Source: Bacteroidota bacterium
Lineage (GTDB): Bacteria; Bacteroidota; Bacteroidia; M30B66
Reading direction: 5' to 3'
Assembly (NCBI GenBank): GCA_027490225.1
Contig: JAIXYK010000032.1
Coordinates: 32,418 to 96,417, forward strand
DNA: 64,000 bases
In this document: in pieces, positions 11,059 to 56,291 of the stretch
Layout of the letters: each line of letters opens with the position of its first letter
Position numbering within the stretch: the first letter of the stretch is position 1
The notes under the pieces: generated by a model
What the model was told of the DNA's origin: nothing
The model's database searches: none
The model's input: the letters and a program-made list of their open reading frames with translations, nothing else
Position numbers and translations under genes: made by a program

Positions 11059-11068
11059 AAATAAAAAA

Positions 11069-11101
11069 GGCGGATGTAATTAAATACATCCGCCTTTTTT
11101 T
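11069..11101. terminator. bidirectional rho-independent terminator
   Basis: Hairpin GGCGGATGTA-attaaa-TACATCCGCC flanked by an A-run on the 5' side and a T-run on the 3' side, between convergent genes. Confidence 0.8.
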
Positions 11102-31452: not shown

Positions 31453-31501
31453 ATTTTTGTTTAATGTTAAAATATATTTGTTAAACAAATTTTTGTTTAA
31501 T
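31453..31501 (+). promoter_or_regulatory. promoter/operator region with a 13-nt direct repeat ATTTTTGTTTAAT x2 flanking a TATATTTG -7 element
   Basis: The repeat copies lie at ~31453-31465 and ~31489-31501. TATATTTG at ~31474-31481 fits the Bacteroidota -7 consensus, and a TTTG ~20 nt upstream fits -33. Confidence 0.45.
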
Positions 31502-31531
31502 ACATTTGTCGAAACATTAAACATCACACCT

Positions 31532-32041
31532 ATGTCAGCTCAAGATTTTCAAACGGAAGTAATTAGTCTTAGTAAACCACTAAAGTATTTTGCACTTAAT
31601 TTGACTTCAAATGATGAAGATGCAAAAGACTTGTTGCAAGAAACATTGTTTAAAGCAATAAGTAACCGACATAGGTTTATCGAAAAAACAAACTTAAAAG
31701 CTTGGTGCTACACCATAATGAAGAATATCTTCATAAATAACTACCGCAGAACAGTAAAAGCAAATACAATAGTAGATAATACTAAAGATTTATATTTTCT
31801 TAATATACCTCAACAATCAAGTTCATTTGCCCCAGAATCTAAATATTCTGAACGTGAAATATTAAAGAAAGTAGATAGTCTTGAAAATGAATACAAAATA
31901 CCGTTTACAATGTATTTCGATGGGTATAAATACAAAGAAATTGCGGATTATTTAGATTTACCAATCGGTACAGTAAAAAGCAGAATATTTCTTGCTAGAA
32001 AGCAATTGATGACCATGTTAAAAGGATATTCGGCGGCTTAG
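31532..32041 (+). CDS. ECF-type RNA polymerase sigma factor (LitS/CarQ-like position)
   Basis: Sigma-70 region-2-like (LLQETLFKAI...AWCYTIMKNIFINNYRR) and region-4-like (EIADYLDLPIGTVKSRIFLARKQL) segments are present. I prefer the start at MSAQDF, because the track start at 31457 lies inside the predicted promoter. Confidence 0.75.
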   Translation: MSAQDFQTEVISLSKPLKYFALNLTSNDEDAKDLLQETLFKAISNRHRFIEKTNLKAWCYTIMKNIFINNYRRTVKANTIVDNTKDLYFLNIPQQSSSFAPESKYSEREILKKVDSLENEYKIPFTMYFDGYKYKEIADYLDLPIGTVKSRIFLARKQLMTMLKGYSAA

Positions 32042-49246: not shown

Positions 49247-49660
49247 TTATGATTGAAAAGCCAATGCGTATAATTTCATTTGTTTAACCATCGAAACCAA
49301 ACCATTGCTTCTTGTAGGTGATAAGTGCTCTTTCAAGCCAATTTGGTCAATGAAAGAAAGTTCTGTTTTTACAATTTCATTGGGAGATTCATCGCTCAAA
49401 ACTCGAACAAGCAAACTCACAATTCCTTTTGGAATCTGAGCATCGCTGTCGGCTTTGTAAAATACCTTGCCTTCTTTGAGTTCTGCATTTAACCAAACCT
49501 GACTCTGGCAACCTTTTATTAAATATTCTTCTGTTTTTAATCCTTCATCAATTAGTGGCAAAGCTCTGCCAAGATCAATTAGGTATTCGTATTTTTCTGT
49601 CCAGTCTTCGAACATTTCAAATTCCTCTACTATCTCGGCTTCTTTAGCTGCTATGCTCAT
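49247..49660 (-). CDS. sufE: cysteine desulfuration protein SufE
   Basis: SufE family with the active-site motif KGCQSQVWL. Confidence 0.85.
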   Translation of the reverse strand: MSIAAKEAEIVEEFEMFEDWTEKYEYLIDLGRALPLIDEGLKTEEYLIKGCQSQVWLNAELKEGKVFYKADSDAQIPKGIVSLLVRVLSDESPNEIVKTELSFIDQIGLKEHLSPTRSNGLVSMVKQMKLYALAFQS

Positions 49661-50904
49661 TTTAACATTTTTTTTGCTAAGTGAATGGCTGATATCATGC
49701 TATCTATTTCTTCAATCGTATTGTAAAATGCGAATGAAGCTCTAATTGTTCCCGGAACCTTAAAAAAGTCCATTACCGGTTGTGCACAATGGTGACCTGT
49801 TCTAACAGCAATTCCTTGTTTATCGAGAATAAAACCAACATCATACGGATGCAAACCATCAATGCTAAAAGAAATCACAGGTACTTTTTGAACCGCTTGG
49901 CCAATTATTCTAACTCCATCAATATTCAGTAAAGCTTCTGTTCCGTAATGAAGCAGACTGTTTTCATAATTCAGCACTTCATCATGGTTCATTTCATTTA
50001 TATAATCTATTGCAGCACCTAAAGCAATTCCTCCTTCAATATTAGGAGTTCCTGCCTCAAATTTAAACGGAGCATCATTATAAGTCGTTTTCTCGAAAGT
50101 TACGGTCTTAATCATATCACCGCCGCCTTGATATGGTGGAATTTCAGCAAGTATTCTTTCTTTCCCGTATAAAATTCCAACACCAGACGGGCCAAACATT
50201 TTATGTGAAGAAAAAACATAGAAATCACAATCCAACGCTTGAACATCAACTTTAAAGTGAGGCACAGCTTGTGCGCCATCCAATAAAATTAAAGCTCCTA
50301 CTTTCCTTGCCATTTCCATTACCTTTTCAACTGGATTAATGGTTCCTAATGCATTCGAAACGTGCATCATTGCTAACATTCGCGTTCTTAGGCCAATAAT
50401 CTTTTCGGCTTCTTCTAAAATTAATTCCCCATTTAAATCCATAGGAATTACTTTCAAAACAGCCCCTGTTTGCTCGCATACCATTTGCCATGGAACTATA
50501 TTAGCATGATGTTCCATTGCTGTAACTACAATCTCATCACCTGGTTTCAGATAATTTCTTCCCCAGGTTTGAGCTACTAAATTTATTGCTTCGGTTGTGC
50601 CTTTTGTAAATACAATTTCACTGCTGGATTTAGCATTTATAAAATGACTCACTTTTGACCTAGCAACCTCATAAGCATCAGTAGCCAATTGACTCAGGTG
50701 ATGTACACCGCGGTGAATATTAGAATTCGTATTTGAGTAATAGTTTACAATTGAATCTATTACCAATTTTGGTTTTTGTGATGTGGCACCATTGTCAAAA
50801 TAAACGAGCGGTTTTCCATTTACCGTTGCAGATAAAATTGGAAAATCTGCACGAATTGCATGCACATCAAAAATTTGTTTTGCCTTCTCCTCTATCGTTT
50901 CCAT
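49657..50904 (-). CDS. sufS: cysteine desulfurase SufS
   Basis: Class-V aminotransferase. The PLP Lys region is SSHKMFGPSGVG, and the motif RTGHHCAQP with the catalytic Cys defines group-II SufS. Confidence 0.9.
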   Translation of the reverse strand: METIEEKAKQIFDVHAIRADFPILSATVNGKPLVYFDNGATSQKPKLVIDSIVNYYSNTNSNIHRGVHHLSQLATDAYEVARSKVSHFINAKSSSEIVFTKGTTEAINLVAQTWGRNYLKPGDEIVVTAMEHHANIVPWQMVCEQTGAVLKVIPMDLNGELILEEAEKIIGLRTRMLAMMHVSNALGTINPVEKVMEMARKVGALILLDGAQAVPHFKVDVQALDCDFYVFSSHKMFGPSGVGILYGKERILAEIPPYQGGGDMIKTVTFEKTTYNDAPFKFEAGTPNIEGGIALGAAIDYINEMNHDEVLNYENSLLHYGTEALLNIDGVRIIGQAVQKVPVISFSIDGLHPYDVGFILDKQGIAVRTGHHCAQPVMDFFKVPGTIRASFAFYNTIEEIDSMISAIHLAKKMLK

Positions 50905-50909
50905 GGGTA

Positions 50910-52232
50910 TTATTTTATTTGTTGAATCATTCCAGAAATAACTTCTGAAAGTTTTGTGCGTAAAGAATCATGCTTAATTTTATTGATAACTTCAGCAGCA
51001 TAAGCATCTAGCAGTAAGGCTTTTGCAATACTTTCTGAAATCCCTCTTGAACGTAAATAAAACAATTGCTCACTATCAATAAAACCTGTTGAAGAGCCAT
51101 GAGAGCATTTTACATCATCTGCATAAATTTCCAATTGAGGCTTGGTGTTAACCGTTGCATCTTCGCTTAGTAAAATATTCTTATTGCTTTGGTAAGCATT
51201 TGTTTTTTGTGCGTCTTGCCTCACAAACACTTTTCCATTAAAAACAGCAGTTCCATCTCCGGCAACAGCACCTTTATACAACTCATTACTTTCGCAATGT
51301 GGCATACTATGGTCAACTAATGTATGATTGTCGAACGTTTCTCCAGATTTTGGAAAATAAAATCCATCCAAATGGGTTTCGCAATGGGTTCCTTTTAAAA
51401 CAATTGTTAAGTTATTTCTAACAAGCTTTCCAGCCAAAGTAACAGTAACAGTTTCAAACTTAGCGTTATTTTGTAAGTAAGCTTCTGTAGTTTGAACTAT
51501 ACCCATTTTCTTACCAACTTCTTGAACATTATACCAACTTACACTTGCTTTCTCTCCAACAACTATTTCTGTAAATCCGTTAATTAATGTAGTTTCATTG
51601 TTATTGGAAGAAACTTGAAGATGGATAAAATTTACCGATGAGCCATTTTCTGCCACTATTAATATTCTTGGCTGAATTAATTTAGGCTCATTTTCAGTAC
51701 TTGACTGAATAATTTGAAAAGTCTTTTCAATATGAACATTTTCAGGGACATATACAAATAATCCATCTTGAAATAATGCAGTATTCAATGCAATAAATGA
51801 ATCAGTATCTGTTTTTGTGTGCATGCCCAAGTGCATTAATGCATGCACATTTTTGCTGGCAATTGCGTCTGCAAGACTACTTACAATTACACCTTGCGGC
51901 CATTCCTTTTTTTGATTCAGTTTTTCATCATAAAATCCATCAATCAAAAACAAATTGTTTGCATCATCTACCATTAATTCGTTTTGCACAACATTACCAG
52001 TAGAATTTCGGGTCAATGAGTGATTTAATTCTGATTTTACAAACGCTTCGAAAGAAAGGTACTTGTATTCTTCCCATTTTTTTGTTGGGAAACCTAAATG
52101 CTTGAAAGCTTCTGCTGCTTTATTCCTAAATCCAGACAGAACAGGATTGTCAGGGAAAAATGCAGTTTTCTGCAATTCAAAATCTGCAAGTAATTTATCT
52201 TTTAACGTAACTCCGTCTACTATAGCACTCAT
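50910..52232 (-). CDS. sufD: Fe-S cluster assembly protein SufD
   Basis: Beta-helix SufB/D family at ~440 aa, lacking the SufB-specific N-terminal region. It is positioned between sufC and sufS. Confidence 0.8.
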   Translation of the reverse strand: MSAIVDGVTLKDKLLADFELQKTAFFPDNPVLSGFRNKAAEAFKHLGFPTKKWEEYKYLSFEAFVKSELNHSLTRNSTGNVVQNELMVDDANNLFLIDGFYDEKLNQKKEWPQGVIVSSLADAIASKNVHALMHLGMHTKTDTDSFIALNTALFQDGLFVYVPENVHIEKTFQIIQSSTENEPKLIQPRILIVAENGSSVNFIHLQVSSNNNETTLINGFTEIVVGEKASVSWYNVQEVGKKMGIVQTTEAYLQNNAKFETVTVTLAGKLVRNNLTIVLKGTHCETHLDGFYFPKSGETFDNHTLVDHSMPHCESNELYKGAVAGDGTAVFNGKVFVRQDAQKTNAYQSNKNILLSEDATVNTKPQLEIYADDVKCSHGSSTGFIDSEQLFYLRSRGISESIAKALLLDAYAAEVINKIKHDSLRTKLSEVISGMIQQIK

Positions 52233-52245
52233 CTTTTCCTATTAT

Positions 52246-53001
52246 TTATGATAATGCCACTTCTTTTTTAATCCAATCGTATCCTTTTTCTTCCAGCTCC
52301 AAAGCCAGTTCTTTTCCGCCTGATTTCACAATTTTTCCATCAAATAAAACATGTACAAAATCAGGAACTATATAATCCAATAAACGCTGATAATGCGTAA
52401 TTACAATAGTTGCGTTTTCCTTCGATTTTAAACGTGTTACACCGTTTGCTACAACACGCAAAGCGTCAATGTCTAAACCTGAATCTGTTTCATCTAAAAC
52501 AGCAAGTTTAGGTTGTAACATGGCCATTTGAAATATCTCATTTCTTTTTTTCTCCCCACCCGAAAAACCTTCGTTTACTGAGCGGTTTGTAAGATTGGTA
52601 TCCATTTCCACTACAGCTTTTTTATCTTTCATTAGTTGAAGAAATTCCTTTGGTTCCATTGGAGGTAACCCTCTGTAAGCCCTTTGCTCGTTGATAGCGG
52701 TCTTTAAGAAGTTAGTAATACTTACTCCTGGAATTTCTACTGGATACTGAAACGCAAGAAAAATTCCCTCACGAGCGCGATCTTCAGGCGCAAGTTCAAG
52801 TAAATCTTTTCCATCAAAAATTATTTCACCAGCTGTTACTTCGTAATCTTCTCTTCCCGCAAGAACAGAAGCCAAAGTACTTTTTCCGGAACCGTTGGGT
52901 CCCATTATAGCATGCACCTCACCAGGCTTCACTTCCAGACTAAACCCTTTCAAAATCTCTTTTTCTTCTACCCTCGCGAAGAGGTTACGTATACTTAACA
53001 T
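52246..53001 (-). CDS. sufC: Fe-S cluster assembly ATPase SufC
   Basis: ABC ATPase: Walker A GPNGSGKST, signature FSGGEKKR and Walker B LAVLDETDSGLD. Confidence 0.95.
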   Translation of the reverse strand: MLSIRNLFARVEEKEILKGFSLEVKPGEVHAIMGPNGSGKSTLASVLAGREDYEVTAGEIIFDGKDLLELAPEDRAREGIFLAFQYPVEIPGVSITNFLKTAINEQRAYRGLPPMEPKEFLQLMKDKKAVVEMDTNLTNRSVNEGFSGGEKKRNEIFQMAMLQPKLAVLDETDSGLDIDALRVVANGVTRLKSKENATIVITHYQRLLDYIVPDFVHVLFDGKIVKSGGKELALELEEKGYDWIKKEVALS

Positions 53002-53180
53002 GTGCTTGAATTTTGTGCTTGTTTAAAATCATTCTAAATAATTTGCAAAATTAACAGTTTTATGTGGATAAAGTTTAGTTTTTTTTATTTGAAAACTACC
53101 TATTCCTCAGAGAGTTTGATGTGATAAGTATGAAACTGTAATAATAATCATATATAACTGATATTTAGTGTCATAAAATA

Positions 53181-53223
53181 TATATATGAAATTTTGCAAT
53201 TAATTTGCAAAATTTCATATATA
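53181..53223. promoter_or_regulatory. perfect 43-bp palindrome (19-bp arms, 5-bp spacer) in the sufC/ATPase divergent intergenic region
   Basis: TATATATGAAATTTTGCAA-ttaat-TTGCAAAATTTCATATATA. The right arm runs into a TATATTTG -7-like element. A related ATTTGCAAAAT copy lies at ~53040-53052. Confidence 0.55.
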
Positions 53224-53234
53224 TTTGTGAAATG

Positions 53235-54410
53235 TTTCACAGACAACTAATTACGAAGCTAAACCGGTTGGCAATTCAGTTCCCGGTTTTGGCCATAACA
53301 GGACCAAGACAAGTTGGAAAAAGCACCTTAGCTAAGATGTTTGCAGAGGTAGCTGGCAAAAAATTTATCCTTTTCGACTTAGAAAAACCTTCTGACCAGC
53401 TTGCTTTAGAAGAACAAACAACGCAGGTACTAGAAAGTCACAGGGATAATCTTGTAATAATTGACGAGGTACAAAGACAAAAGGCGCTTTTCCCAATAAT
53501 GAGGTATTTAGTAGATGAGCATAGAATTCCGCTACGCTTCTTGCTTTTGGGTTCTGCTTCACCAGAGTTAATTAAAAATAGTGCTGAATCTTTAGCGGGA
53601 AGAATTGCTTTTGCAGAGCTAAGCGGATTTCTACCGTTGGAAACAGGAATTGAATCCTGGAGAAAACTCTGGTTTAGAGGCGGATATCCTACTGCATTTA
53701 TACAAGACGATAATGAACTAAGAAGAGATTGGTTTGAAAACTATATAAATACTTATGTTCAAAGAGATCTCCCTCTATTAGGAATGCCATCAGAGCCAGG
53801 AGTTACCATTAGGCTTTTATACATGTTAGCGCATTTAAATGGGCAGGTATTAAATATGAGCACCCTTGCGCGAAACTTAGGACTTAGTGTAAATACGATA
53901 AAAACGTATTTGTTTTTTCTCGAGAATGCAGGATTAATAAGACTTCTGCAGCCATGGTTTGTAAATTCGTCTAAACGATTGGTTAAAAACCCAAAACTAT
54001 ATTTTAGAGATACTGGTATTCTTCATTTTTTACTGGGTATTTATAAGGAACAAGATGTTTTAATACATCCTGCTTGTGGAGCCTCTTTTGAAGGATTTAT
54101 AATTGAAAAAACACTTGCGAACCCGAATTTAAACTTGCATGGATATTTCTATTCTGAACACAGTGGCGGAGAAATAGATTTAATGCTTGTTGAAGGTATG
54201 AACATAAAATGTACAATTGAAATCAAACTTGGAGGAATTAGCAACTTGAGCAAGGTTTCTAAAGTGCTTCATCAGAATTTTTCAAGTGCATCAAGGGTTT
54301 TAGTGAGTGGTGAAACAAATAAAAATATGCAACTGTCGAATAATATGGAAATGAAGACTGTTGAAAATTACTTTACAGAATTTCTTGGAGCGCGTGAAGC
54401 AAATTCTTAG
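53235..54410 (+). CDS. AAA-family ATPase with C-terminal DUF4143-type domain
   Basis: Walker A ITGPRQVGKSTLAK and Walker B LVIIDEVQ. I prefer the ATG at MFHRQLI over the track's TTG at 53205, which lies inside the palindrome. Confidence 0.8.
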   Translation, partial: FHRQLITKLNRLAIQFPVLAITGPRQVGKSTLAKMFAEVAGKKFILFDLEKPSDQLALEEQTTQVLESHRDNLVIIDEVQRQKALFPIMRYLVDEHRIPLRFLLLGSASPELIKNSAESLAGRIAFAELSGFLPLETGIESWRKLWFRGGYPTAFIQDDNELRRDWFENYINTYVQRDLPLLGMPSEPGVTIRLLYMLAHLNGQVLNMSTLARNLGLSVNTIKTYLFFLENAGLIRLLQPWFVNSSKRLVKNPKLYFRDTGILHFLLGIYKEQDVLIHPACGASFEGFIIEKTLANPNLNLHGYFYSEHSGGEIDLMLVEGMNIKCTIEIKLGGISNLSKVSKVLHQNFSSASRVLVSGETNKNMQLSNNMEMKTVENYFTEFLGAREANS

Positions 54411-54480
54411 TAAGTTGAAAATATTTTCAATTGAGAAAATGGTTAATTTAATAATTACCTTCTTGCAAACATCATTCGCC

Positions 54481-54488
54481 AAATTGCG
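54481..54488 (+). promoter_or_regulatory. -7 element TACTTTTG immediately upstream of lepA
   Basis: TACTTTTGCAGCC ends only a few nt before the first in-frame start codons. This implies a very short leader. Confidence 0.4.
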
Positions 54489-54503
54489 TTACTTTTGCAG
54501 CCG

Positions 54504-56291
54504 ATGAAAAACATTCGTAACTTTTGCATCATTGCACACATAGACCATGGTAAATCAACCTTGGCCGATCGTCTCCTTGAATTTACCAATACAATTACTA
54601 AGCGCGAATCGCAAGCTCAGGTCCTCGACGACATGGATTTAGAGCGTGAGCGCGGTATTACCATTAAAAGTAAAGCCATTAAAATGGAATATCTTTTAAA
54701 TGGAGAAAAATACATTTTGAACCTAATTGATACTCCGGGACACGTTGACTTCTCTTATGAAGTTTCACGTTCTATTGCAGCATGCGAAGGAGCTTTGCTC
54801 ATAGTAGATGCTGCACAAGGTATTCAAGCACAAACCATTAGTAATTTATATCTGGCTTTAGAGCACGATTTAGAAATTATTCCTATTCTTAATAAAATGG
54901 ACTTGCCGGGCGCAATGCCAGAAGAGGTAAAAGATCAAATTGTGGAATTAATTGGATGCAAACGCGAAGATATTCTCGCTGCATCTGGTAAAACAGGCAT
55001 GGGCGTTCACGATATTTTAGAAGCGATTGTTAGCCGCGTGCCTGCTCCAAAAGGTGACCCAAATGGAGAATTGCAGGCATTGATTTTTGATTCTGTATTT
55101 AACTCTTTCCGTGGTATTTATGCGTATTTTCGTGTAATTAATGGTTCAATTAAAAAAGGCGACAAGGTAAAATTCATGTCAACTGGAAGTGAATATTTTG
55201 CTGATGAAATTGGCTCCTTGCGATTAAAACCAGAACCAAGAAATGAAGTAAATGCAGGTGACGTTGGTTATTTAATTTCCGGAATCAAAGAAGCCAAAGA
55301 AGTAAAAGTGGGCGACACCATTACACATGTTGACAAACCTTGCAAAGAACAAATCAAAGGTTTTGAAGATGTGAAACCAATGGTATTTGCGGGAATTTTC
55401 CCAGTTGATACTGAAGATTACGAAGAACTGAGGTATTCTATGGAAAAACTTCAGTTAAATGATGCATCGCTTACTTTCGAGCCAGAATCATCTGCGGCTT
55501 TAGGATTTGGTTTCCGTTGTGGTTTCCTAGGAATGCTCCACATGGAGATTATTCAGGAAAGACTGGAACGCGAATTTAACATGACAGTAATCACTACAGT
55601 TCCAAACGTTTCTTATAAAGCTTATAAAACAAATGGAGAAGAGTTAATTGTAAATAATCCAACTGACTTACCCGATCCTAGCAAATTAGATAGAATTGAG
55701 GAGCCTTACATTCGTGCACAAGTAATTACAAAATCAGAATACACCGGTGCCATTATGACATTGTGTATTCAAAAAAGAGGATTCCTTGTAAATCAAAATT
55801 ACTTAACTACAGACCGTGTTGAATTGGTATTTGAAATGCCGATGGGTGAAATTGTTTTCGATTTCTATGATAAATTGAAGTCATTATCAAGAGGTTATGC
55901 CTCATTTGATTATCATCCAATTAATTACCGGGAATCAAAACTGGTGAAGCTAGATTTAATGTTGAATGGAGAACCTGTGGATGCTTTGTCTTCTTTGATA
56001 CACAGAGACAATGCGTATGATTTTGGTAAAAAGATTTGCGAGAAACTAAAGGAATTACTGCCGCGTCAACAATTTGAAATTGCGATTCAAGCCTCAATTG
56101 GTGCAAAAATTATTGCACGTGAAACTGTGAAAGCGATGCGTAAAGATGTAACTGCAAAATGTTACGGAGGAGATATCTCCAGAAAGCGTAAATTGTTGGA
56201 TAAGCAGAAAGAAGGTAAGAAACGCATGCGCCAAGTTGGTTCTGTAGAAATTCCACAAACCGCATTCATGGCGGTGTTGAAGCTCGATTAG
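54504..56291 (+). CDS. lepA: translation elongation factor 4 (LepA)
   Basis: [25 protein letters not shown]... is colinear with EF4 and includes the LepA-specific C-terminal domain. The track start three codons upstream is less likely. Confidence 0.95.

Follow-up and report, generated by a model that had tools for sequence, protein, structure and literature searches.

A promoter palindrome that travels with PDC-S01 ATPase genes and probably serves as their autogenous operator

A perfect palindrome lies directly upstream of an AAA_14, winged-helix and DUF4143 gene of the PDC-S01 group in the window, that is, in the whole 64-kb stretch of DNA that was analysed. Comparison of homologous loci showed that this palindrome is a family-wide cis element, which moves with the gene, has a fixed symmetry about a single base and a conserved 33-bp core, and sits on the core promoter. 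We consider it probable that the palindrome is the autogenous operator of the gene at 53232-54410. As judged from sequence comparison, the most likely binder is the protein that the gene encodes, which would control its own expression. The reading of the window was corrected in this respect, and the palindrome is not a suf regulator site.

The inverted repeat consists of the arms ATATATATGAAATTTTGCAA (53180-53199) and TTGCAAAATTTCATATATAT (53205-53224), which are 100% complementary and separated by the 5-nt spacer TTAAT, with the symmetry centre at base 53202. An earlier sequence-only reading of this DNA had described a perfect palindrome with 19-bp arms. The perfection held, while the arms proved to be 20 nt each (45 bp in total). 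That reading had also placed the palindrome beyond chance, which was borne out by two results. No longer perfect inverted repeat with a spacer of at most 20 nt was found anywhere in the 64 kb, and the palindrome folded as single-stranded DNA reached -18.6 kcal/mol (z = -6.4), which none of 200 dinucleotide shuffles equalled. Exact matches to GAAATTTTGCAA in the window were confined to the two arms. The intergenic region that holds the palindrome has 22% G+C, and the outer arm ends are simple (TA)n. The outermost 4-6 nt on each side (ATATAT) are a lineage-specific extension that the relatives do not carry, and L007, L009 and L013 diverge from the window palindrome outside about +/-16-17. The window core had a PWM score of 35.0, among the top scores in 498 kb, and a PWM scan of the window found no second operator site besides 53186-53218. 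A conserved block upstream resembles the outer left arm in direct orientation; it was kept in L007 and L009 despite diverged flanks, and similar strings were also present in L012 and L013. An intrinsic terminator was considered as well and rejected, with only 3 G-C pairs in 20 and no upstream minus-strand gene to terminate. The elements of this region are as follows.

53180-53224, no strand assigned: full perfect palindrome, 20-nt arms and 5-nt spacer
53186-53218, no strand assigned: 33-bp core of the proposed operator, ATGAAATTTTGCAATT-A-ATTTGCAAAATTTCAT, centred on 53202; the family-conserved portion
53146-53168, no strand assigned: conserved block TAATCATATATAACTGATATT, direct repeat D2, with the operator centre about 45 nt downstream
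53220-53227, plus strand: TATATTTG, which fits the Bacteroidota -7 consensus (TAnnTTTG); shares 5 nt with the right arm and is separated from the ATG by 4 nt

The downstream gene encodes a protein of 392 aa. Pfam found AAA_14 (1e-23; 84 bits, cutoff 27) followed by DUF4143 (5e-34; 118 bits, cutoff 28.1), which is the PDC-S01/COG1373 architecture, and an HTH_24 match at residues 207-237 (1e-4, at the Pfam cutoff). PADLOC matched the PDC-S01 model PDLC04790 (E = 1.2e-76) and six more PDC-S01 models, and a search of NCBIfam gave no match. All of the sequence features tested were present, and by these the protein is a member of PDC-S01/COG1373. The start codon ATG at 53232, 7 nt past the right arm, was backed by N-terminal alignment with homologues; the mechanical ORF begins upstream at the in-frame TTG 53205. 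Among 53 sequences, G24, G29 and K30 of Walker A and D78 and E79 of Walker B were invariant, as were E287 and D316 of the PD-(D/E)XK signature, with E330 and K332 at 90% or more; the window protein has all of these residues. The AF2 model built from 53 homologues (pLDDT 91) contains an AAA+ module, a winged helix (about 189-258) and a C-terminal alpha/beta domain that bears E287, D316 and E330-x-K332. Residues 220-232 form the predicted recognition helix, and the basic wing (N245, K248, R249, K252 and K255) is invariant or nearly so. The top Foldseek matches were RuvB, ORC subunits, the archaeal AAA+ proteins 2fna and 2qen, and Avs4; AAA+ ATPases with winged-helix DNA-binding domains (RuvB, ORC, 2fna and 2qen) are thus among them. 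Profile matches of the MarR/ArsR type (MarR/HlyU-type) to the winged-helix region were sub-threshold, and PDB sequence and profile searches gave generic P-loop and sub-threshold winged-helix matches only, with no solved relative by sequence.

53232-54410, plus strand: AAA_14, winged-helix and DUF4143 (PD-(D/E)XK-like) gene, 392 aa, from Pfam, PADLOC and AF2; proposed operator binder
53796-54005, plus strand: predicted winged helix, residues 189-258, from AF2 secondary structure, invariant columns and HTH_24
53886-53897, plus strand: codons S219-V220-N221-T222 at the N-terminus of the recognition helix, which covary with inner operator bases
54075-54359, plus strand: PD-(D/E)XK-like C-terminal domain, residues 282-376, from alignment columns and fold elements

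DUF4143 was previously assigned to the PD-(D/E)XK nuclease superfamily with function unknown (PMC3424549). PDC-S01, by description a fusion of an ATPase with a PD-(D/E)XK domain, was ranked the fourth commonest prokaryotic defence candidate, detected about 29,500 times in bacteria and 10,000 times in archaea; its anti-phage role is a candidate one, with validation pending (PMC12988326). In rumen genomes, no other single defence locus was as frequent (PMC13356809). In one condition, the Thermus family member TT_P0211 showed a 6.6-fold increase in mRNA (PMC4406477), which is consistent with regulated expression in the PDC-S01 family.

Close relatives were then compared. Six contigs with an identical protein (L001-L006) are uninformative on variation, since their intergenic regions are 100% identical. 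L007 (91% identity) and L009 (83%) have the synteny of the window; in both, the palindrome core was kept and the mid-intergenic sequence had diverged, while the sufC-proximal block 53020-53098 was strongly conserved. The decisive case was L011/L013 (69% identity, on a 4.2-Mb chromosome), where no suf gene is adjacent and ATGAAATTTTGCAATT-A-AATTGCAAATTTTCAT is kept together with TATATTTG just before the ATG. The palindrome therefore goes with the ATPase gene and not with sufC. L012 and L014, which with L011/L013 span 69-76% identity, stand in other contexts and keep the palindrome, as do L047, L048 and L049. The pattern ATGAAAwTTTGCAA-N5-TTGCAAAwTTTCAT, with TAnnTTTG directly before the ATG, was retained in all of L007, L009, L011/L013, L012 and L014.

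For the family as a whole, homologue upstream regions (-80 to -1) were drawn from species genomes and metagenomes, of which 57 were distinct. An inverted repeat scoring at least 10 was present in 32 of these 57 regions; the control rates were 3.6% for 111 other ORFs from these loci and 0.35% for shuffles. Planctomycetota, Deltaproteobacteria, Chlamydiota, Latescibacterota, Nitrospirota, Firmicutes and Bacteroidota are among the hosts, and so is an archaeal methanogen, Methanocalculus. At a score of 9 or more there were 35 palindromes; the spacer is odd in every one of them, which means that the symmetry is about a single base, and anchoring on the centre base brings them into register. The half-site consensus at offsets -15 to -2 is T-R-Y-A-A-W-T-T-K-n-M-A-A-T, with a core of 33 bp; across the 35 palindromes the positions of highest information were A-12, T-8 and A-4. 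Watson-Crick symmetry was at least 0.83 across offsets 2-16 and fell to background level beyond 17. Changes were compensated on both arms, as in TTGTATATTTGCATTA of L019 vs TTGTAGATTTGCATTA of L053. Each arm holds two similar heptads, T-G-M-A-A-W-T, at -15 to -9 and -7 to -1. A symmetric site of 33 bp is also long for one winged-helix dimer.

In a PWM scan of about 498 kb (the window and related loci), every site with a score above 20 fell 16-75 nt ahead of an ATPase start, with one exception, an orphan remnant at L015:3045. About a third of the homologues at 30% identity or more had no clear palindrome, and start-codon errors may explain some of these cases. Homologues on viral contigs with at least 38% identity have palindromes centred 19-34 nt before the start, while most of the viral-contig matches near 30% identity fall into a subfamily with a different element, so that this set validates the palindrome in part. 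The plasmid copies of cultured GC-rich organisms carry the AT-rich dyad CCTTGCAAwT...AwTTGCAAGG, which mostly ends at the annotated start codon or within 3 nt of it (T. thermophilus HB8, M. japonicum, R. leguminosarum, A. tumefaciens, P. denitrificans, A. caldus and S. linguale). In the GC-rich replicons of Thermus, rhizobia, Paracoccus and Acidithiobacillus the element is an AT-rich island. The dyad of the Spirosoma gene Slin_6960 is perfect at 15/15 positions, and the gene is annotated as an ArsR-family regulator; the members in T. thermophilus HB8, M. japonicum and A. tumefaciens are TTH_RS10120, MAFF_RS36320 and QYR00_24010. The ATPase was the only gene common to 28 representative loci. 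Co-inheritance of a site with one gene across contexts, with no other gene shared, is what would be expected of an autogenous operator.

The palindrome overlaps the promoter. TAnnTTTG is the -7 promoter consensus of Bacteroidota, known from Bacteroides and Flavobacterium promoters. The overlap of the right arm with a -7-like element, noted in the sequence-only reading, was confirmed; throughout the window clade the box overlaps the right arm and lies 4-5 nt before the ATG. It was kept in six of the seven relatives checked (69-91% identity; L007, L009, L012, L013, L014, L047 and L048), and L049 reads AATCTTTG. A box right before the ATG suggests a leaderless or near-leaderless mRNA. A canonical -33 TTTG, which should lie 19-21 nt away from the -7 box, was absent in the window. 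Elsewhere in the family, the sigma-70 hexamers that can be recognised occupy three registers relative to the centre of the palindrome. In the first, the -10 box lies at -13 to -8 (left core) with TTGACA 17 nt upstream (L019 and L053-57). In the second, the -35 box lies at -17 to -12 and the -10 box at +6 to +11, which puts the predicted start at the ATG; L034 has a perfect TTGACA-N17-TATAAT inside the palindrome, the rhizobial (Mesorhizobium) copy has TTGCAC-N17-ATAATT inside it, and the other plasmid copies have similar hexamers within the palindrome. In the third, the -35 box lies at +3 to +9 and the -10 box at +26 to +32 (L021, L022, L059, L068 and L071). In the archaeal copies, the TATA-like TTTTATAT abuts the left arm. 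The dyad thus lies over the gene's own core promoter, as an operator does, with the start sites being predicted ones. The constant geometry under changing promoter type and register indicates that the palindrome is not itself the promoter and points to a site for a factor that travels with the element.

The N-terminus of the predicted recognition helix varied together with the inner bases of the palindrome. The residues [S/A]VNT or PNT pair with TTTGCA(A/T)T in three separate clades, namely the window clade, the L019/L056 clade, and L020 with L059, the latter two proteins being otherwise 46-50% identical to S/T-H-N-T proteins with TTGTAAAT operators. In L029 and L036, which share 39% identity, DNKT is paired with TTGGAGT. 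With identity in the rest of the protein taken into account, a partial Mantel test yielded a correlation at the inner bases, offsets 2-7, of r = 0.34 (p = 0.001), whereas core, outer bases and flanks showed none. As the first covariation window (residues 217-226) had been picked post hoc, an unbiased scan of 352 ten-residue windows was run, in which 213-222 ranked first and 8 of the 12 top windows overlapped 211-227. The covariation was calculated over 17-19 lineages, and the correlations are modest (0.3-0.4). Residues of the predicted DNA-binding domain thus follow the sequence of the site to a modest degree, as is expected of the binder of an operator.

The sequence-only reading had named no cognate regulator. 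The recognition-helix covariation, together with the lack of any other shared gene, argues for the ATPase's own winged helix as the binder. The ATPase would bind the site through this domain as a symmetric dimer or a higher oligomer. The variable N-terminus of the recognition helix (S219-T222) would read the variable inner bases at offsets 2-7, and the invariant basic wing would contact the invariant A/T core (AAWTT near offset 10). An invariant wing facing an invariant AAWTT would fit the way in which winged helices usually bind, where the helix enters the major groove and the wing reaches into the minor groove beside it. The predicted code is SVNT with TTTGCAAT, SHNT with TTGTAAAT and DNKT with TTGGAGT. 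In the window, the operator would span about -46 to -14 relative to the start predicted at or beside the ATG. Its occupancy would block RNA polymerase, and the ATPase-nuclease would be held at a low, self-limited level. From the position of the site, we infer repression rather than activation.

The other side of the intergenic region carries, on the minus strand, sufC (52246-53001), sufD, sufS, sufE, an FeS_assembly_P gene and a DUF2480 gene, with no sufB paralogue within the 64-kb window; on the plus strand the ATPase gene is followed by lepA. The sequence-only reading had proposed a dimeric-regulator operator coordinating the suf operon and/or the ATPase. Its operator part is supported by the dyad symmetry, the promoter overlap and the conserved bases. 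The link to suf was not supported, as the same palindrome precedes ATPase homologues with no suf gene nearby (L011/L013, L012 and L014), and related palindromes precede homologues in many phyla. A suf-operon regulator site of the IscR/SufR type was rejected on the same ground, the palindrome being found without suf (L011-L014 and others) and always with the ATPase. On this comparative evidence, the suf operon is a mere neighbour of the palindrome. The second copy of the half-site near sufC was found where it had been reported.

53041-53051, no strand assigned: distal half-site ATTTGCAAAAT, probably outside the element; 53053-53046 on the minus strand reads TAATTTTG

This site lies 40 nt from the sufC start at 53001, and extended to a 17-mer it is 94% identical to 53198-53214. 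The 11-mer repeat alone is weak evidence, because two copies of an 11-mer in 64 kb were reached by 12 of 100 window shuffles. On the minus strand, TAATTTTG matches TAnnTTTG about 45 nt before the sufC ATG. This match was retained in L007 (TATTTTTG) and L009 (TAATTTTG), in which small changes alter the half-site reading, and no distal half-site was found upstream of the ATPase in the other contexts of L012, L013 and L014. The distal copy is not a feature of the family, being missing in other contexts, and it coincides with the -7-type box of sufC. By sequence, the distal half-site is more likely a -7-type box of the sufC promoter than a second operator site. A sufC promoter is the simplest account of it, and sufC needs one because there is no sufB upstream. 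It may also have been co-opted as an auxiliary operator, as the shared 12-mer spans the whole half-site.

Several other explanations were weighed against the autogenous operator. A host dimeric transcription factor that acts on the palindrome and the distal half-site could coordinate sufCDSE with the divergent ATPase; the two sites share ATTTGCAAAAT (17 nt, 94%) and flank the divergent intergenic region, and the block 53020-53098 near sufC was strongly conserved in L007 and L009. We regard this as highly improbable, given that the palindrome is found away from suf genes in L011-L014 and in other phyla, that the distal site is missing in those contexts and coincides with the sufC TAnnTTTG, and that no host factor could serve bacteria and archaea alike. 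It is very improbable that the symmetry arose only from promoter hexamers that overlap or diverge (TTGCAA; TTTG on both strands), with no operator function. Hexamers resembling TTGCAA/TTGACA and TATAAT are indeed embedded in the palindromes, and TTTGCAAA supplies TTTG on both strands in a Bacteroidota genome. However, the 33-bp geometry is constant over sigma-70, Bacteroidota -33/-7 and archaeal TATA-box promoters, while the distance of the hexamers from the centre falls into three registers. In many cases the right arm is past the -10 box, where no promoter signal is needed, and other genes of the same loci have no such palindromes. A selfish repeat of the REP or MITE kind, or a palindrome that arose by chance in AT-rich or TA-repeat sequence, would agree with the 22% G+C and the (TA)n arm ends. 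The sequence-only reading had named hundreds of copies as the mark of a REP-like element; instead, a single copy was found in the window, and the matches in the 498 kb lie upstream of ATPase genes apart from one orphan. Shuffles essentially never matched the scores, and dozens of independent loci have kept both the position and the sequence, so that we give this explanation almost no weight.

A different case is a stand-alone nucleic-acid structure (a 5' leader RNA hairpin, a terminator or a DNA cruciform) in which pairing alone is selected and no dedicated protein is involved. The strong predicted hairpin (z = -6.4), a terminator-like call on the minus strand in the consensus scan and the covariation of both arms would all be expected of it. 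It is nevertheless quite improbable, since particular bases and not just pairs are conserved across phyla, and the symmetry reaches offsets 1-2, which cannot pair in a hairpin. Mismatches of the G.T and A.C types were about equal (7 vs 8), so there is no strand bias and no wobble signature of an RNA strand. The starts predicted inside or after the palindrome would leave the full hairpin untranscribed. A search of Rfam 15 found no family at the gathering score; the matches were miRNA-hairpin noise, the best with 28 bits against the 90 required. The remaining explanation keeps the ATPase as the binder and gives the palindrome a mainly non-transcriptional role, either as an assembly or loading platform for an AAA+ oligomer in the manner of ORC or DnaA, or as a cruciform or duplex substrate or decoy of the PD-(D/E)XK domain, for example as a 'self' reference or a supercoiling sensor. 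The two heptads per arm make four subsites, two forward and then two reverse. The fold is akin to RuvB and ORC, the PD-(D/E)XK catalytic residues are conserved, and the arms are unusually long and often perfect in an AT-rich palindrome prone to extrusion. Against these points, the site overlaps a -35/-10 or -7 promoter in all lineages examined, as a transcriptional operator does. There is a single site per gene with no second one nearby, and the covariation falls on the winged helix and not on the nuclease domain. We therefore hold a mainly non-transcriptional role to be unlikely, and the autogenous operator is preferred.

PDC-S01 is a very common and uncharacterised candidate anti-phage gene. 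It has neither a validated function nor a solved structure, and no description of its regulation was found. In the literature on DUF4143, COG1373, PDC-S01 and AAA_14, no upstream palindrome, operator or DNA-binding specificity was found described; the proposed mechanism itself would be classical autoregulation. The operator and the predicted recognition code would be the first concrete molecular handle on PDC-S01. They would supply a defined DNA ligand for binding and structure work, a readout of derepression and a code that can be tested by helix swaps, and the operator signature could sharpen the annotation of gene starts and family members. In a broader model, PDC-S01 would be a sequence-programmable DNA-binding ATPase-nuclease, each gene would carry a cognate four-heptad palindrome that nucleates an AAA+ oligomer as in ORC or DnaA, and the promoter copy, beyond being a repressor site, would act as a 'self' reference or sensor. 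This model is distinctly unlikely. If it were true, invading DNA, supercoiling or cruciform extrusion would titrate or activate the protein and couple derepression to nuclease activation, and the family's repeated passage between Bacteria and Archaea would be accounted for by a promoter, operator and leaderless start that come as one unit.

Among known systems, DnaA binds DnaA boxes at its own promoter and Orc1/Cdc6 binds origin boxes beside its own gene; like PDC-S01, these are AAA+ proteins with a C-terminal HTH or winged helix and specific sites. PDC-S01 does not belong to their sequence families, and it has a PD-(D/E)XK nuclease-like domain. Their sites are arrays of asymmetric 9-mers or origin boxes around an unwinding element, whereas the PDC-S01 site is one perfect dyad of 33 bp. 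The likeness comes from the fold search and the placement of the site, not from a role in replication. In autorepressors of the MarR/ArsR type, a winged helix reads a dyad at its own promoter, as is proposed for PDC-S01, and a weak similarity was seen (HTH_24, the sub-threshold matches and one ArsR annotation). Membership of these families is not established, because the E-values are sub-threshold. In PDC-S01, the winged helix is embedded between the AAA+ and nuclease-like modules, and the operator is about twice as long. BrxR/CapW (WYL-type) and RptR (PMC12255303) repress anti-phage genes through inverted repeats in promoters. In contrast to the proposed arrangement, they are encoded by separate regulator genes of other families, while PDC-S01 loci have no conserved separate regulator. 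The C proteins of restriction-modification systems are small, separate HTH proteins of the Xre type with an unrelated C-box motif, whereas the DNA-binding domain of PDC-S01 is fused to the ATPase-nuclease. With these differences, the proposed arrangement resembles the C-box systems in having a palindrome that overlaps the promoter, a potentially toxic nuclease, autogenous control and horizontal portability.

The 35 inverted repeats found upstream of ATPase homologues were aligned on their single central base, and each operator arm was seen to consist of two alike heptads, T-G-M-A-A-W-T, offset by 8 bp. With two heptads per arm, the operator carries four subsites, two forward followed by two reverse. 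Upstream of the operator lies a further conserved block. The corresponding features in the window are:

53187-53193 and 53195-53201: operator heptads, mirrored on the right arm
53146-53168: conserved block TAATCATATATAACTGATATT, some 45 nt before the operator centre

The block is related to the outer left arm of the palindrome as a direct repeat (D2). It is kept amid diverging flanks in the syntenic loci L007 and L009, and strings resembling it also occur in L012 and L013, two further loci with ATPase homologues.

The right arm of the palindrome also bears on the start of the ATPase gene. An in-frame TTG within this arm lengthens the mechanical ORF by 9 codons (53205-53231), and at least one gene call in the public databases, P0001 of 401 aa, starts there. 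N-terminal alignment supports the ATG at 53232. Support for this ATG implies that the starts of some database entries of the ATPase family probably extend into the operator.

On the other side of the operator, the suf genes form one cluster:

49247-53001, minus strand: sufC-sufD-sufS-sufE with an FeS_assembly_P gene and a DUF2480 gene

There is no sufB upstream of sufC in this cluster, and a tblastn search of the whole 64 kb with SufD found no further sufB/sufD paralogue. Without an upstream sufB, sufC therefore needs a promoter of its own here. The sufC-proximal block at 53020-53098 was near-invariant among relatives of 83-91% identity.

In the window (53232-56291), L012, and L013, the gene lepA adjoins the ATPase gene or sits close to it, in varying orientation and at varying distance. 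The G+C content of the ATPase gene is 36% vs 38% in its neighbours. Because this value is close to that of the neighbours and lepA is nearby in all three loci, the ATPase gene looks as if it had long been resident in this Flavobacteriales lineage and had not been inserted recently.

Palindromes were also found away from the ATPase starts:

L015:3029-3061: orphan operator copy in another of the related loci, position-weight matrix score 22.4
11063-11100: palindrome AAAAAAGGCGGATGTAATT / AAATACATCCGCCTTTTTT, 95% complementary, no spacer
31458-31523: imperfect palindrome with 32-nt arms, 78%

The orphan copy matches the L012 operator exactly for about 26 nt, and divergence begins within the right arm. 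No ATPase ORF lies downstream of it, and a separate partial ATPase gene is 2.4 kb off; this arrangement looks like a rearrangement breakpoint within the palindrome. The palindrome at 11063-11100 has the appearance of a bidirectional terminator, and the start of the one at 31458-31523 falls on the first base of a mechanical ORF, 31457-32041.

A distinct element, TTTCGGCTAAAAT, was found upstream of the ATPase starts in a divergent PDC-S01 subfamily of about 25-31% identity with the N-terminus M-x-Y (loci L037, L069/L070, L113/L115, L116, L118, L119, and L121). In several of these loci it is partnered by AGCCGAAA, 8-25 nt downstream. These upstream sequences suggest that other PDC-S01 branches have an operator type of their own.
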